Part shown: piece by piece, positions 5,976 through 58,724 of the stretch
How positions within the stretch are numbered: position 1 is the first letter of the stretch
Layout: every line of letters starts with the position of its first letter
Assembly (NCBI GenBank): GCA_025830695.1
Contig: GCA_025830695.1_4111.1
Length of the DNA stretch: 64,000 nt
Reading direction: 5' to 3' (one strand)
From: a phage
Made by a program: the position numbers and the translations under genes
The notes under the pieces: generated by a model
What the model saw: the letters and a program-made list of their open reading frames with translations, nothing else
Told to the model about the DNA's origin: nothing
The model's database searches: none

Positions 5976-7940
5976 ATGGCTAAGAAAGAAAGTGCTGTTC
6001 TACAGGAACATGATGTTCAACGACTAAATGATTATCAACATGCTCGTTTGCGTACCGAGATGTATCTTGGTTCTCGTTCAGTGCATGAAAGTCAAGTACT
6101 GATTTTTGGCGAATCAGGTTATGAGGTTAAGAACGTAGAATGGGTTCCTGCAATTCTTACTGCTACACGTGAAATTATTGATAACAGCTTAGATGAATTT
6201 AAAAAAGCTGGAACCAAAGAACCTGTTTTGAAAGTTGATTTCAATGAAGAAGAACTATCATTTGAAATTAGTGACAATGGACGTGGTATTCCAATTGATT
6301 ATGTTCCAGAGTATCAGAAAAACTTGTGTACTATGGTAATGACTGAAACAAAAACAGGCCGTAACTTTGACGATTCAAAACGTGATGAAACGATTGGTCA
6401 GAATGGTTTAGGTGGTTCTGTTGCAATGATTGTCAGTTCTAAGGCAGAGTTAGAAATTCATCGCCAAGGTCGTCCGTATAAAACACAAAGTAGTAATGAT
6501 GGTTATGATGGGTTTTATAAGTTCAATCAGAAGTTTGAGGAAGGAACTATTATGTTCCCTGAGCTTCATGTACACGAACCTACTATTAGAAAGGTACAAA
6601 CCGATAAAACTGGAACAACAATTCGTTTTACTTTGAGTAAAGAAGTTTTTCCAAACAGAAAACTACCAACCGAATTACTTTATAGTATTCTTAAAGAAAT
6701 GGCAGCAGCTAACCCAACTTATAAAATCTTTCTGAACGGGAAACGTATTGCTATTAAAGGAAACACTGAAAAAGCACTCTTCAATGCATCTAAATTAATG
6801 CAGTTGAATGTTAAAGATGATTCATTCAATTTTAACAGTACTTTTTATATTGTTCCTAATGCAGTAGCTGGCATGAACACGAATTTCCATATGCATGGGT
6901 TGGTTAACAATGCTCCTGCATTTGATGGTGGTACACATCTTGATACATTCAAGAAATTCTTCTCACTCGGTGTAGGAACTGCACTAGAGAAAGAATCTAA
7001 GAAACGTAGGATGAAACCTAATCGTTCTGATATTGAAGAAGGTTTGTTGATTTATAATGTCACAACTATGAAAGCACCTTCATTCAACTCACAGATTAAA
7101 TCTAAACTAACTAATGAAAACGTAATCCGTCCAATTCAACAAGCTATGAATACCGAATGGTTTGATGAATTAGTTAAGAAGAACAAAGAATGGGTTGATG
7201 AAATCTTCGAACGTTGTGCTGCCCGTACAAATAAGAAAGATGCAGAAGAAGATCGTCGCCTAGCAAAGAAACTTCTAAAAGGTAAAGTTGCAAAACTATT
7301 GGATAGTACTGGAACAGACCGTTCACAGTGTATTCTATTGATTGCAGAAGGTGACTCTGCAATTTCCAACATGGCTAGTGCTCGTATACCAAGTATTCAT
7401 GGTATTCTACCATTGCGTGGGAAAATTATGAACGTCAGTGGTACTGAGAAAACCAAAGAATTAATGGATTCAATGGCTTTACATGATATAATGGCTAGTA
7501 TCAACTTAGTTCCAGGTGTTAAAGCAGAACGTTCTGAACTAAACTATGGCAAGCTTTACATCTGTGCTGATGAAGATGAAGATGGGAAGAACATTGGTGC
7601 TCTAGTGTGTAACTTCTTATTTAAATTCTGGCCTGAATTGTTTCAAGACCCAGAAAATCCATTTGTGTATGTATTCAAAACACCATTTATCATTCTTGAG
7701 AAAGGTAAAGAATCAAAATACTACTATGGTCATAATGTGCATGAATATAACCCAGATGATTGGAAAGGCTGGAAAGCAACGCGTGCAAAAGGTTTAGGAA
7801 CTTTAGAAAAAGCAAACTTCCGTGATGCATTCACTAATAGTGTTGCAGTAGCGATCACCGATGATGGCCGTCTTGGTGAAACTCTTGATTTGATTTTCAA
7901 CAAGAAACGTGCAGATGATCGTAAGAACTGGATGGAATAA
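5976..7940 (+). CDS. 39: DNA topoisomerase II large subunit (gp39/gp60-type, ATPase + Toprim)
   Basis: 654 aa; Toprim motif LLIAEGDSA; contiguous with no split; RBS AAGGAA. Confidence 0.85.
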   Translation: MAKKESAVLQEHDVQRLNDYQHARLRTEMYLGSRSVHESQVLIFGESGYEVKNVEWVPAILTATREIIDNSLDEFKKAGTKEPVLKVDFNEEELSFEISDNGRGIPIDYVPEYQKNLCTMVMTETKTGRNFDDSKRDETIGQNGLGGSVAMIVSSKAELEIHRQGRPYKTQSSNDGYDGFYKFNQKFEEGTIMFPELHVHEPTIRKVQTDKTGTTIRFTLSKEVFPNRKLPTELLYSILKEMAAANPTYKIFLNGKRIAIKGNTEKALFNASKLMQLNVKDDSFNFNSTFYIVPNAVAGMNTNFHMHGLVNNAPAFDGGTHLDTFKKFFSLGVGTALEKESKKRRMKPNRSDIEEGLLIYNVTTMKAPSFNSQIKSKLTNENVIRPIQQAMNTEWFDELVKKNKEWVDEIFERCAARTNKKDAEEDRRLAKKLLKGKVAKLLDSTGTDRSQCILLIAEGDSAISNMASARIPSIHGILPLRGKIMNVSGTEKTKELMDSMALHDIMASINLVPGVKAERSELNYGKLYICADEDEDGKNIGALVCNFLFKFWPELFQDPENPFVYVFKTPFIILEKGKESKYYYGHNVHEYNPDDWKGWKATRAKGLGTLEKANFRDAFTNSVAVAITDDGRLGETLDLIFNKKRADDRKNWME

Positions 7941-7974: not shown

Positions 7975-7990
7975 ACCAAGAGACAATGGA

Positions 7991-9403
7991 ATGGCTAAAA
8001 GTAAAAAAACAGAAAATCATAATATCGATAACCAAACACTAACTCTACTAGATTATAACAGTTCTGATTATGTGAATACAACATCACTAGAATATTCGAT
8101 GTATACACTAGACCGTGCTATTCCTGGAATTGATGGTCTAAAGAGTTCACAACGTAAAGCAATCTTCACATTATCTAAAATTAGTGGGGAAATTAAAACA
8201 GTATCATGTGCTGGAAAAATGATTAGTGATGGTATCTATCTTCATGGGGACACGTCAGCATCGGGAACACTTCAAAATCTAGCATCTCCAGTAGCTAACA
8301 ACTATCCTCTTATTGGAAAACGTGGTGGTTTTGGTACACAAGTAAACAGTACACCAGCATCTGCTCGTTACACTTATGTTAAAAAGAATAAGAGTACTGA
8401 GATGCTTGTTTTGCGTGATGCTGATATTATACCAATGAAAGAGAACTATGACGGGACAACATATGAACCTGTTCATTTCTTGCCTATTATTCCATTATCA
8501 TTGTTTGGTAATGATAGTATGTCAGTTGGTTATAAGAGTACAATTCTACCACATAAAATTGAAGATATTATTGATAATTGCATTCGTGCTATTGATAAAA
8601 AACCACTAAAAGAAATGACCCCATATTATGTTTCATGTGGTGCAAGTGATGTTGTGACTAAGCTTGATGAAAATAAGTATGAATTCTATGGTAAAGCTGA
8701 GGTTATTGATGCAAGCACTGTTAAAGTAACAGGCTTACCACCTAATTACAGTATTGAGAAATTCATCGAAAAACTAATCAAAATGAGTGATGATGGTGAG
8801 ATTCGTGATTATGACAATGATAGTACTGATGTAATTGATATTACCATTAAACTTCCACGTGGAACGTCAGCTAAATGGACAGAGATGGATGTTATTGAGT
8901 ATTTTGGCATTAACAAAAAAATGACTCAACATTTAACTGTTCTAGGTGAAAATGGCAAAGTGAAAGTTTACGATACTACGATGGATTTGATTAAAGACTT
9001 CGTTGATTTCCGTTTCAAATATTACATCAAGCGTTATGAAAAGAAACTTGATGATTGTGCTGCTGAAGTTCGTTATAAAATTCTAATTAAAGAATGTTTC
9101 GATAATGATATGATTGCTAAGGTAAAAGGATTTGCAAACCGTGCTGAAATGGTTGAATTCGTTAAATCGTTAAATACCGAAATTGAAGCGACGGAAGAGA
9201 ATATTCAAAGCATTGTAAACTTCCCTTCATATCGCTGGACGCAAGATAATTATCAATCAGTACTACAAGATATTCAAGATAATCTTGATTTGATGGATAA
9301 GTACAATGAACTGTTATCTAATCATGACTTAATTTGGGACATTTATAAATCTGAACTAAAAGAACTAAGAAAGATTGACTTTACTCCTAAATCAGACAAT
9401 TGA
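7991..9403 (+). CDS. 52: DNA topoisomerase II medium subunit (gp52-type, GyrA-like cleavage domain)
   Basis: 470 aa; N-terminal YTLDRAIPGIDGLKSSQRKAIF resembles GyrA/ParC N-terminus. Confidence 0.85.
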   Translation: MAKSKKTENHNIDNQTLTLLDYNSSDYVNTTSLEYSMYTLDRAIPGIDGLKSSQRKAIFTLSKISGEIKTVSCAGKMISDGIYLHGDTSASGTLQNLASPVANNYPLIGKRGGFGTQVNSTPASARYTYVKKNKSTEMLVLRDADIIPMKENYDGTTYEPVHFLPIIPLSLFGNDSMSVGYKSTILPHKIEDIIDNCIRAIDKKPLKEMTPYYVSCGASDVVTKLDENKYEFYGKAEVIDASTVKVTGLPPNYSIEKFIEKLIKMSDDGEIRDYDNDSTDVIDITIKLPRGTSAKWTEMDVIEYFGINKKMTQHLTVLGENGKVKVYDTTMDLIKDFVDFRFKYYIKRYEKKLDDCAAEVRYKILIKECFDNDMIAKVKGFANRAEMVEFVKSLNTEIEATEENIQSIVNFPSYRWTQDNYQSVLQDIQDNLDLMDKYNELLSNHDLIWDIYKSELKELRKIDFTPKSDN

Positions 9404-41193: not shown

Positions 41194-41323
<130 letters not shown>

Positions 41324-44507: not shown

Positions 44508-44981
<474 letters not shown>

Positions 44982-45016
44982 CAGGGGAGGTTGTGATTCC
45001 CGATTCAGTAGCTTAT

Positions 45017-45139
<123 letters not shown>

Positions 45140-45140
45140 T

Positions 45141-45275
<135 letters not shown>

Positions 45276-45277
45276 TA

Positions 45278-45334
<57 letters not shown>

Positions 45335-45419
45335 AGTAAGAGTAAAAATGAAAGTAAGTAAAAAAACTACCAAGCAGCTTGAAGAACTTTGTAGTGCTGC
45401 ACCTATGCCGACTCTTGGC

Positions 45420-45520
<101 letters not shown>

Positions 45521-45532
45521 TATCTTACTTCT

Positions 45533-45622
<90 letters not shown>

Positions 45623-53961: not shown

Positions 53962-54002
53962 TATTATAATTAACACACCAAGTAACCCAAGGGGGGTGGA
54001 AA

Positions 54003-56898: not shown

Positions 56899-57864
56899 GT
56901 GAAAAAGCTTGATTTAAATACAATTGCCGAAGAAGTTCTGGATGAATGTTTTGCTAATGAAGAAGTCAACACACTAGAAGCCTTAGATTTCGTTGAAGAT
57001 AAAGATGATAATGAAGGTAAAGTACAAAGCAGTTTCAAATATAATATTACACTTAAGCGACCACCAAATGTTTCCAATGAAGATCTAATTCGTGATATTC
57101 AAGCTGGTATCAATGTAAAGAAAAACACTGAACTGTTAGTTCGTTACAATTATGGACTGATTATTGATGTAGCAAGTAAATGTACTTGTTATATCCCATT
57201 TGAAGATAAGATTTCATATGGTGTTGAGGGGTTCATGAGAGCACTAAAAACCTTTGATCTTAATAAGAATGTTAAGTTCATTACCTATGCTTCTTCTAGT
57301 ATTTACATGACAGTCTATAACGAAAGTTCTGACGCTAACTATATGGTACACTTCCCACGTTATATGAGTGTTCATAAGATCAAAGTAAAAAGATTCTGCC
57401 AGGAATATATGCGTAAACATGGTGTTCGCCCAACACCTGAAATAATCTCAGAGGGTACTGGGATTGAGATTCAGCATGTTAATAATTGTTTATTATTTCA
57501 AAGCGAATACACTTCACTGGATGCACCATTAGACGGTGTTACAGATGGTACATTAGGTGACATTATTCATTCACCTGCTTCTGATTTTAACCTCAATGTT
57601 GATAGTATCCGTGCACCTTTACGTTATGCTATCAATGAACTAACTAACGAATTGAGTACTAAAGAACGTGAGATTATCCAGCGTGTTCATGGTCTAGGTG
57701 AATATGAACCTGAAACGCTTCGTGAGATTGCTGATAATGGTTTTGTTGATGATAATGGAAAATATGTTAAATCCCGTTCATCAATACACCGAAAGTACAG
57801 TGAAGCTATGCAAAAGCTTAAGAAGTTAGTACTTGCAAAAGGGTACGAATACGAAGATTTCTAA
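56899..57864 (+). CDS. phage sigma factor (sigma70 region-2 homolog, gp55-like but longer)
   Basis: GTG start after AGGAG; YGLIIDVASK...GVEGFMRALKTFD...KFITYASSSIYMTV matches sigma region 2 / T4 gp55 pattern. Confidence 0.55.
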   Translation: MKKLDLNTIAEEVLDECFANEEVNTLEALDFVEDKDDNEGKVQSSFKYNITLKRPPNVSNEDLIRDIQAGINVKKNTELLVRYNYGLIIDVASKCTCYIPFEDKISYGVEGFMRALKTFDLNKNVKFITYASSSIYMTVYNESSDANYMVHFPRYMSVHKIKVKRFCQEYMRKHGVRPTPEIISEGTGIEIQHVNNCLLFQSEYTSLDAPLDGVTDGTLGDIIHSPASDFNLNVDSIRAPLRYAINELTNELSTKEREIIQRVHGLGEYEPETLREIADNGFVDDNGKYVKSRSSIHRKYSEAMQKLKKLVLAKGYEYEDF

Positions 57865-57872
57865 AGAACAAG

Positions 57873-57897
57873 GGTTGGCTTATGCCAACCTTTTTTT
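57873..57897 (+). terminator. intrinsic terminator
   Basis: GGTTGGC-TTAT-GCCAACC followed by TTTTTTT. Confidence 0.75.
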
Positions 57898-57918
57898 ATG
57901 GGATGAAGTAAAAGTTTG

Positions 57919-57927
57919 TGATATAAT
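57919..57927 (+). promoter_or_regulatory. extended -10 promoter element (TGaTATAAT), weak -35
   Basis: Same TGTGATATAAT element as other promoters; lies in front of ORF-free segment. Confidence 0.4.
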
Positions 57928-57934
57928 TATCTTG

Positions 57935-58400
57935 TACAATTCTGTTGGCATGATATTCATGTACCTGATCCACTCGAAAACGTAGAGGGCAGTTGAGCAG
58001 TCCGACAGTGCGAACAGCAAAAGAAACCCGTTAGATGTGGGCATAGTTTGAACCCCTCACGGCAATGCGGCTGTATAAAGAACCACGTTAGGATAGCTGG
58101 TGGTTCCTTGATAGACATATAAGGATAACACCTTACGAATTATCTAAGGGAGAGTTATCGAATTTTGTACAGGAAAGTTGCGTCCAAAATTTGAGTACTC
58201 ACATTAAGTATTTGATTGCATAGATACTTAATGAAGATACACTATGTTTAAAAGTGTAGACCGTCATATGAAACTGAAGTAGAGAGAAACAGGATGACCC
58301 GCTTTCGCACTCGTTATGAGTAATCTTCAATGCAATAGCTCTGATACCATCAGCGTCAAATTTCCCTCCTTGTGGGGGGAAGAAAAATCCCTTCCTCAAA
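57935..58400 (+). ncRNA. candidate structured non-coding RNA
   Basis: About 470 nt with no + strand ORF, visibly GC-richer than surrounding coding DNA. Confidence 0.3.
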
Positions 58401-58421
58401 TCCCGTCAATATTAAAAGTCC

Positions 58422-58450
58422 TTGACAGTTATTAATCATTCGCGTAGAAT
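58422..58450 (+). promoter_or_regulatory. sigma70-type promoter
   Basis: TTGACA-N17-TAGAAT. Confidence 0.5.
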
Positions 58451-58514
58451 ACGTAGTATTAGAAGCGAACAGACATCTCGAAGAGATGGATGATTAACCA
58501 TTAAGGAATATCCA

Positions 58515-58724
58515 ATGAATTCAGTAATCTTTTTAGTAATAGCTTTTTCTGTTAATTCCGGTGTACAAATAACCCCAATGAATTCCATGAATCAATGTAT
58601 AGCAGTACGTGATAGTACATACGAACAAGTAAACAAAGATATTTGGATTACAGTTAATAAAGAACAAATGTGGTGTTACAATAGTAATACTAACACAAAG
58701 CTTATTGTAGGACAAACTCAATGA
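58515..58724 (+). CDS. small secreted/membrane protein
   Basis: Hydrophobic N-terminus; RBS AAGGAA. Confidence 0.5.
   Translation: MNSVIFLVIAFSVNSGVQITPMNSMNQCIAVRDSTYEQVNKDIWITVNKEQMWCYNSNTNTKLIVGQTQ

Follow-up and report, generated by a model that had tools for sequence, protein, structure and literature searches.

A candidate large structured RNA gene in Rak2-like jumbo phages

The locus and its features

The stretch of phage DNA analysed here (the window; 64,000 nucleotides (nt), contig GCA_025830695.1_4111.1) carries on its plus strand, at 57935-58411 (approximate ends), what we propose with moderate confidence to be the gene for a ~480-nt non-coding RNA (ncRNA) of an undescribed family, acting through its fold. 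The region is 98-100% identical to Asteriusvirus coliphages phAPEC6, SHEFM2K, 121Q and PBECO4, entered in database records as Rak2-like jumbo myoviruses of ~350 kb, and the window is, judged by sequence, DNA of a Rak2/121Q-like jumbo coliphage. The gene upstream (56899-57864) encodes a sigma-70-type factor, matched by the Pfam domains Sigma70 r2, r3 and r4, and is followed by an intergenic gap of 650 nt (57865-58514), the next gene with an annotated counterpart beginning at 58515. An earlier, sequence-only reading of the window had described a ~470-nt segment free of open reading frames (ORFs) behind a sigma-factor gene, the largest non-coding stretch present; Pfam bears out the sigma factor, whereas the gap proved larger and has a counterpart of comparable length at 44946-45538. 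This other ORF-free stretch (~590 nt, directly upstream of tRNA-Thr at 45539-45612) was probably the first RNA candidate of that reading, and showed no membership in the RNA family described here by profile hidden Markov model (HMM) or covariance model.

G+C content exceeds that of the flanks, as had been noted (0.43-0.44 across 57900-58199 compared with ~0.29-0.37), though it falls to 0.35 across 58100-58299. The 66-codon minus-strand ORF previously reported as the only one exists (58199-58399, TTG start), but further short ORFs overlap the gap, of 50 and 39 amino acids (aa) on the plus strand and of 54 and 53 aa on the minus strand. The strong terminator and the TGaTATAAT extended -10 element that had been picked out upstream were both located. 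Our analysis supports a plus-strand RNA gene with a predicted promoter (57899-57927), a leader and hairpin (57940-57961) and a core (57963-58411), and a transcription start inferred near 57934-57936. The features of the locus are as follows.

57870-57900, plus strand: intrinsic terminator of the sigma-factor gene (10-bp stem at 57870-57893, 4-nt loop, T-run), the upstream limit of the RNA unit
57899-57927, plus strand: predicted RNA promoter, with the -35-position box TGGGAT at 57899-57904 and the extended -10 TGTGATATAAT at 57917-57927, within which lies TGATATAAT at 57919-57927
57940-57949, plus strand: leader motif YYCUG-N-UUGRY, here TTCTGTTGGC
57949-57961, plus strand: leader hairpin h0 (CATGA-TAT-TCATG)
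57963-58135, plus strand: 5' domain, helices h1-h6
57970-57975/57985-57989, plus strand: helix h1
57997-57999/58009-58011, plus strand: helix h2
58014-58018/58070-58074, plus strand: helix h3, enclosing h4
58028-58031/58059-58062, plus strand: helix h4
58080-58085/58101-58106, plus strand: helix h5
58120-58123/58132-58135, plus strand: helix h6
58152-58200, plus strand: long variable arm; stems GAGU/ACUC (outer) and AAUUUUG/CAAAAUU (inner), apical region conserved and including GUUGCGUCC
58202-58233, plus strand: hairpin h7, whose loop at 58215-58221 (AUUGCAU) is the 5' strand of pseudoknot PK1; 10 of 11 pairs change on both sides
58237-58259, plus strand: hairpin h9
58263-58329, plus strand: 3' core, containing PK2, h11, h12 and h13 and the invariant strands GACCGU and ACCCGCUU
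58263-58267/58294-58298, plus strand: pseudoknot PK2 (5 bp), GUCAU with AUGAC in the h12 loop; GUYRY after invariant GACC
58275-58279/58325-58329, plus strand: helix h11, enclosing h12 and h13
58282-58286/58302-58306, plus strand: helix h12
58309-58311/58319-58321, plus strand: helix h13
58330-58336, plus strand: 3' strand of PK1 (AUGCAAU), just 3' of h11 and pairing with the h7 loop; 7 of 7 pairs covary, 98.8% of cells paired
58347-58359, plus strand: box 1 (CCAUCAGCGUCAA); family consensus AUCAKCGUCAR, CGUCA invariant
58362-58381, plus strand: G/C hairpin h14 (UUCCCUCC-UUGU-GGGGGGAA), G-run conserved
58398-58409, plus strand: box 2 (AAAUCCCGUCAA; family consensus AUCYCGUCAR), which nearly repeats box 1; no invariant block lies beyond it in the family profile, whose end is at 58411
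58422-58450, plus strand: sigma-70-like promoter (TTGACA, 17 nt, TAGAAT) of a downstream 69-aa ORF; context, not conserved with the RNA family
58439-58469, plus strand: downstream imperfect hairpin (UUCGC...GCGAA) with apex ACGUAGU at 58451-58457, the mini-hairpin element accompanying the module

Conserved fold, transcription signals and distribution

Evidence for the fold came from an alignment of 38 distinct full-length homologues (alignment A2), in which RNAalifold identified 66 pairs, 44 of them with compensatory changes. The RNAalifold helices emerged again, independently, when every pair of columns was searched for stacked covariation, and two pseudoknots were added, giving a combined model of 72 pairs, 14 helices and two pseudoknots. 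Under this model 97.1% of 2684 cells were paired, compared with 37-44% when partners were slid by 1-3 columns, and 54 of the 72 pairs changed on both sides with pairing kept, compared with 14-25 in the slid controls; on any of five measures, the observed value was reached by none of 500 column shuffles. Cells with G.U (192) outnumbered those with A.C (18), and pairing was 97.1% on the plus strand and 90.6% on the minus strand. As read from the alignment, the compensatory changes and the G.U excess show selection on single-strand pairing of the plus strand. The window copy fits the family profile (nhmmer E = 4e-107) and bears all of its marks, namely the 72-pair fold, the GAUAG, CACGGC, GACCGU and ACCCGC blocks and two CGUCA boxes, and scored 122 bits with a covariance model of the 3' domain, which also matched two copies on which it had not been trained (140 and 101 bits). 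The segment had already been named a candidate structured RNA, with comparative covariation proposed as a check, and the figures above bear out that proposal. A closing helix between UGA (A2 columns 45-47) and the UCA of a box, also predicted by RNAalifold, has six invariant columns and was not counted.

A conserved coding frame in relatives, which the sequence-only reading had said would count against an RNA, was looked for over the RNA among the copies and not found, stops or frameshifts disrupting the 66-codon ORF in nearly all of them. A missed protein-coding gene was rejected on this ground, as was a small ORF starting from an AUG after the G-run, since the window has AAG at that place and the frame is not conserved. 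Short hypothetical coding sequences (CDSs) are nonetheless annotated over the RNA in several records (GAP32_503A at locus 2812-2925, 7t3_0445 to 7t3_0447, Kaldavass CDS0100-0102 and Hallingskeid CDS0625-0629, and likewise in the SHEFM2K, E9.1 and JP4 records); these are probably annotation artefacts, judging from the copies compared.

Between the helices run long invariant unpaired stretches, among them the joining strands GAAACCCGUUAG, CACGGCAAUGCGGC and GAUAGACAUAUAAGG of the 5' domain. The arm region (58152-58200) formed an extended hairpin in all 13 copies sampled, with differing stem sequences, while variation in h14 was nearly all one-sided (C-G to U-G); GGGGGG occurs once elsewhere on the plus strand of the window, in a ribosome-binding site at 53991. 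The sub-module ACAAUAUAGAUCCGUCCAAAAUUUGAG sits on the long arm in most copies, inside h13 instead in two and in both places in two others (A2 columns 285-315 compared with 445-478; copies Yen904_93k, U1414_186k, ph0011 and E. coli), a shift that is, on the aligned sequences, a natural domain relocation inside one RNA family. Beyond the core, a palindromic N-CG(A/U)AG-N mini-hairpin lay no more than 125 nt downstream in 25 of the 38 copies (~0.03 expected per copy), tipping a longer hairpin 41-64 nt past box 2 in copies measured by eye, and the motif was not enriched elsewhere in the window. Directly after box 2 most copies have a TAWTAAA motif (58410-58417 in the window, TATTAAAA), which resembles the late-promoter consensus of T4 and CBB (TATAAATA / ATAAATA), and an RGUAC motif lies 10-25 nt beyond it.

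Signals for transcription recur with the family. In the 90 nt listed upstream of each copy, TGnTATAAT was present in almost all 38, and most also have, 12-15 nt ahead of this -10 element, a box reading TGAAAC or TGGGAC. The promoter of the RNA belongs to the TGAAAC class described for phage CBB, a "divergent RpoD-like" class found mainly upstream of DNA-synthesis genes (PMC5259590). The tRNA-Ser gene (41233) is preceded by a promoter of the same type at 41194-41222 (TGGGAC, 11 nt, TGTGATATAAT), and the TGnTATAAT element occurs 20 times on the plus strand of the window. Upstream of many paralogues the spacer between TGAAAC and the -10 is an inverted repeat (for example at loci L007 ~2390-2420 and L009 ~2310-2340) whose arms covary among copies (CCACAA/TTGTGG, CAGATT/AATCTG, GGCAC/GTGCT). 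The covarying spacer suggests a hairpin-forming promoter element, reminiscent of the promoter-early stem-loops of T4-type phages.

Downstream of the promoter, a strict regular expression for the leader motif matched 29 of 38 copies, with variants visible in most others (two further matches were promoter sequence, not leader), and a hairpin took the place of h0 in 37 of 38, with more than 12 different stem sequences. Because the leader motif and the covarying h0 precede the core, the RNA would begin near 57935, ~25 nt upstream of the conserved core, rather than at the core itself. Pairing between leader UUGRY and the GUCAR boxes is suggested only, as their variation is one-sided and the leader can also pair locally beside h0. 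At the 3' end, ~45% of copies have a hairpin and U-run (an intrinsic terminator) inserted between box 1 and h14, and the window copy is among the ~55% with no terminator ahead of h14 and box 2. In the paralogues at 24-35 kb the promoter is followed at once by a hairpin and U6, then by the highly conserved leader AAUUGAGAAAAACUCUGAAUGAC and the RNA (L082 ~7990-8070, L028 ~6720-6800, L025 ~590-670); this promoter-proximal terminator would make expression conditional on read-through or antitermination. The GAP32 177-kb copy has opposite-strand genes on both sides and therefore cannot be a leader there.

Sensitive blastn placed the core (~57964-58415) in 62 phage records, at ≥87% identity in most Asteriusvirus genomes and ~70% in distant Asteriusvirus (TH47, EJP2), Eneladusvirus (Serratia BF, Yersinia fHe-Yen9-04, Erwinia pEa_SNUABM), Mimasvirus (CBB, GAP32, XbC2) and the 7t3/Munch/XaC1 group. 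Across genera the flanks could not be aligned as DNA, the core being the most conserved DNA of its neighbourhood, and within Asteriusvirus it was 96.5% identical compared with 91% for the whole gap. In annotated records the RNA always occupies a 600-800 nt gap, unannotated or with tiny "hypothetical" ORFs only; in the UE-S1 record (ON568341) the 5' portion of the RNA is annotated as a repeat_region (80759-80916), so that its repetition was picked up by an annotation pipeline, and the corresponding paper does not discuss it. The family is multi-copy, every Rak2-like jumbo phage examined having 3-5 dispersed, positionally conserved paralogues (IMG/VR signature search followed by an nhmmer filter; BLAST gave 4-5 "places" per genome). 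Copies were mapped as follows, UViG denoting an uncultivated virus genome.

GAP32: ~35, 99, 177 and 341 kb
CBB: 32, 174 and 336 kb
BF: 30, 174 and 335 kb
Yen9-04: at least three, at ~24, 93 and 335 kb, with one further match unmapped
371-kb UViG: five copies
345,809-bp UViG: one copy detected

Neither blastn (word size 7) nor nhmmer nor a covariance model found a further copy within the 64-kb window. Paralogues of one genome were 62-81% identical, and copies at the same position in different genera were often closer (GAP32 177 kb and CBB 174 kb, 99%; GAP32 35 kb and Yen9-04 24 kb, 82%). Shared RNA neighbourhoods included the gap between endonuclease VII and baseplate-hub genes (GAP32, 7t3, XaC1), a Dam methylase/cytidylyltransferase block (GAP32, Hallingskeid), an acyl-carrier-protein block (GAP32, ph0011) and the sigma-factor block (window, EJP2, Yen9-04). 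The greater likeness of same-position copies and their common gene neighbourhoods indicate that the duplications are old and the positions maintained. Genes downstream of the RNA vary from genus to genus: the ~260-aa proteins encoded downstream in the window and in phage BF are not related to each other (E = 9) and had no Pfam domains, and a 262-aa HNH-annotated gene lying 540 nt downstream of the RNA is confined to Asteriusvirus. At the loci examined, Pfam and protein comparison found no neighbouring protein gene conserved with the RNA across genera. Together, these comparisons show the RNA to be a non-coding, structure-constrained unit, independently transcribed as predicted from its signals and tied to no neighbouring protein gene.

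Outside phages, an identical full-length copy was present in 2 of 5426 complete E. coli genomes, LR-29-1 (NZ_AP027515, ~3478967-3479521) and EEC_W5 (NZ_CM130020). This copy (nhmmer E = 6e-114) is 84% identical to the BF 174-kb paralogue, keeps 69 of 72 pairs intact, 24 of which differ on both sides from the window copy, and comes with a promoter, leader, internal terminator, h14 and box 2 of its own. It lies in a ~10-kb integrative island beside ffs, which comprises a tyrosine integrase split by the insertion sequence IS3, unknown genes, a serine recombinase and the candidate defence system PDC-M45 (DuOB, DUF488, mSLOG-DUF4326); the unknown neighbours are not jumbo-phage genes. On this sequence evidence, the RNA unit is a self-contained module that moved into the island and stayed intact, and the island could be a satellite-like element, a decoy or a case of origin capture. 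None of 72,556 plasmids carried the element, a bacterial and archaeal pattern scan gave no family member among the 120 matches listed (all chance matches in GC-rich genomes), and the two matches in a JGI metagenome scan were likewise due to chance.

Possible functions and rival explanations

The function we tentatively favour, at somewhat less than even likelihood, is that of a stable trans-acting RNA: a scaffold, a ribonucleoprotein subunit for a phage or host protein, or a ribozyme. Its activity would lie in the three-dimensional fold and be exerted in trans rather than as the leader of one gene. Paralogues with an intrinsic terminator behind box 1 would release the RNA there, and read-through copies, that of the window included, would do so by processing at the repeated CGUCAR boxes, with paralogues being expressed under different promoter and terminator arrangements. 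Large RNAs with as many invariant unpaired bases and pseudoknots as this one generally owe their activity to the way they fold. Several observations weigh against this proposal. The family is known here from genome sequences, and the single-sequence folding energy is unremarkable (z = -1.6), so that the case for structure rests on comparative evidence. A trans-acting RNA does not obviously need 3-5 diverged copies at fixed map positions, and no terminator separates the window copy from the genes downstream. Finally, h14, box 2 and the mini-hairpin are conserved even behind a terminator, which a DNA-level or read-through function explains more easily.

The main rival, which we judge unlikely yet serious, is a replication-origin module like ColE1 RNA II or T4 oriF/oriG. 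The transcript would form a persistent RNA-DNA hybrid downstream, aided by the C-run/G-run hairpin, and prime the leading strand, and on the displaced strand the CG(A/U)AG mini-hairpin would become exposed as a signal for priming or for loading a helicase. Several origins in a 350-kb genome would explain dispersed copies that are syntenic across genera, and conservation beyond the internal terminator, the DNA-synthesis association of the TGAAAC promoter class in CBB (PMC5259590) and the position of one paralogue beside the gp46/47 and endonuclease VII recombination genes all fit. DNA mini-hairpins of the GCGNAGC type are also a recurring feature of priming sites in phages and plasmids, for example the G4 origin and RSF1010 ssiA (PMC13037366), and the E. 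coli integrative island, which has no recognisable replication gene, carries exactly the RNA module. On the other side, ~450 nt of invariant joining strands and a pair of pseudoknots are more than priming needs; in ~45% of copies transcription would end ahead of the presumed hybrid region, no conserved AT-rich unwinding element was seen, a tRNA gene is driven by an equal promoter type, and the element was carried by 0 of 72,556 plasmids. Compared with a trans-acting RNA, an origin would account better for the fixed positions, the conservation after the terminator, the mini-hairpin link and the capture by the island, and worse for the elaborate conserved fold and the terminators before the presumed hybrid site.

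Control of transcription in cis at operon heads, whether by put-like antitermination or by a large attenuator timing downstream genes, appears improbable. Most copies do have a terminator upstream and are followed by a co-directional block of genes, many have a terminator-like hairpin immediately behind box 1, as the 24-35 kb paralogues have behind their promoter, and the window copy must be read through into the genes downstream. Yet the copies at the endonuclease VII/baseplate-hub gap have no co-directional downstream gene, the downstream genes are unrelated between genomes, those that follow the window copy have a separate promoter ahead of them, and known antitermination RNAs measure 70-120 nt. 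Very improbable, in our view, is a selfish or mobile RNA element, either a degenerate group I/II-like intron or a non-autonomous repeat whose fold serves its spread. The copy number, the presence in an unrelated bacterial island, the near-repeat of boxes 1 and 2 on the 3' side, the HNH or Mob-type endonuclease genes near some copies and the UE-S1 repeat_region annotation would suit such an element, but shared positions across genera and 62-81% identity within a genome make it old rather than recently mobile. It is also flanked by a terminator and a promoter and does not interrupt a gene or tRNA, with no Rfam intron match and no target-site duplications or flanking exons seen. That there is no RNA at all, the locus being a missed small protein gene or a conserved array of protein-binding sites in double-stranded DNA, has next to no probability left. 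Although short ORFs exist and are annotated by some pipelines, the lack of a conserved frame, the compensatory changes and the excess of G.U over A.C effectively refute this explanation already at the sequence level.

Returning to an RNA that works through its fold, very few RNA classes longer than ~400 nt with such structural conservation are known to us, and large conserved RNAs of known function are mostly ribozymes or the cores of ribonucleoprotein machines. From its sequence and predicted fold, the RNA appears to represent a new class. A bolder proposal, rather unlikely as it stands, is that it is the founding member of a new large-RNA class (a ribozyme or self-assembling RNA machine) kept by giant T4-related phages in several specialised copies, or else the first tailed-phage origin defined by RNA structure and independent of protein, copied by a bacterial island to ride on or interfere with jumbo-phage infection. 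All Rak2-like jumbo phages examined have the RNA, coliphages under development for therapy among them, and annotation pipelines leave it blank or overlay spurious "hypothetical protein" ORFs. The several specialised copies per genome and the copy captured by an E. coli island with a candidate defence system offer experimental handles. If the origin model is true, replication starts would be located in a poorly understood phage group; if a trans-acting RNA is, it would provide a new target for structure determination and phage-host biology.

Relation to known RNAs and origins

No family of Rfam 15 (4227 families) matched, either across the whole window at the gathering threshold or at the locus and ten diverse copies at E ≤ 10, where sub-threshold matches were scattered, unrelated sRNA and snoRNA noise only. 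The library covers group I/II introns, RNase P, tmRNA, 6S, GOLLD, ROOL, OLE, HEARO, raiA and self-cleaving ribozymes, and full-text literature searches found no description of the element. The families named as candidates by the sequence-only reading (GOLLD, ROOL, tmRNA, RNase P and group I introns) thus gave no Rfam or ARAGORN match. A group I intron was rejected for want of an RF00028 match (P3-P8 core) at E ≤ 10 in the window copy and ten diverse copies and, as a gene interruption, by the location of the RNA between the sigma-factor terminator and a promoter and in four unrelated intergenic contexts. Bacterial RNase P RNA (CR-I to CR-V, P4 pseudoknot) had no Rfam match; ACAG...ACCCGCUU bears some resemblance to RNase P CR-V, but the segment forms PK2 and h12 instead. 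For tmRNA there was neither a tRNA-like domain nor a tag frame by ARAGORN, nor a match in Rfam, and the six tRNAs that ARAGORN found in the window all lie outside the RNA locus. Covariance models of GOLLD, ROOL, OLE, raiA and HEARO gave no match at the Rfam 15 gathering threshold or at E ≤ 10, and HEARO or omega-RNA also lacked an adjacent IscB or TnpB, the neighbours having no Pfam domain and not being conserved. A retron msr-msd was rejected with no reverse transcriptase annotated or detected within ~2.5 kb of copies in annotated records, and a put/EAR processive antitermination RNA because the element is at least 450 nt long and some copies have no co-directional operon downstream.

ColE1 RNA II is a ~500-nt primer with a dedicated promoter, whose fold matters and which has no adjacent replication protein. 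The RNA resembles it in length (~500 nt), in having its own promoter and a G-run/C-run element near the 3' end, in the single-strand-initiation-type hairpin downstream and in having no replication protein of its own encoded alongside. It differs in having no sequence relation and no antisense RNA I counterpart seen, in a far more conserved structure, in the terminator that many copies place ahead of the putative hybrid site and in its absence from the 72,556 plasmids. T4 oriF (uvsY) and oriG (gene 34) are R-loop origins using middle-mode promoters, and share with the RNA several dispersed sites, a non-sigma-70 -35 box with a good -10 and a T4-related myovirus background. The T4 origin transcripts are, to our knowledge, not conserved structured RNAs, and a conserved AT-rich unwinding element like that of T4 R-loop origins was not seen near the copies.

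Among phage transcripts, tRNA genes are similar in being multi-copy and structure-constrained and in the promoter type of tRNA-Ser, while the RNA is six times longer and has no tRNA or tmRNA features. The long ncRNAs of PA5oct, from a related jumbo lineage, are a further parallel: ncRNA001-004, the only ncRNAs of a related phage lineage to be defined by RNA-seq, are ORF-free and by their GenBank coordinates 236-619 nt long (ncRNA003 is listed with 304 nt in the table of the paper), and two are very abundant. The 619-nt ncRNA004 lies on the plus strand between minus-strand genes, as does the GAP32 177-kb copy between genes of opposite strand. No homology to the PA5oct ncRNAs was detected (nhmmer --max on the first 30 kb, with ncRNA001/002; covariance model on all four loci), and a "GATAGAC...TAAGG" resemblance in ncRNA001 was not significant.

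With GOLLD and ROOL the RNA has in common a length above 450 nt, many helices and pseudoknots, highly conserved unpaired bases, phage encoding and a stand-alone gene. GOLLD and ROOL form RNA cages by intermolecular contacts (PMC12286853), and by analogy the PK1 loop-to-strand contact could in principle act between molecules. In contrast to these RNAs, it is hosted by enterobacterial jumbo myoviruses, is present in 3-5 diverged copies per genome rather than one, and does not adjoin tRNA genes in the window and the loci examined. Ultimately, the RNA is closest in kind to the large ornate phage-associated RNAs, though set apart from them by host range, copy number and architecture.

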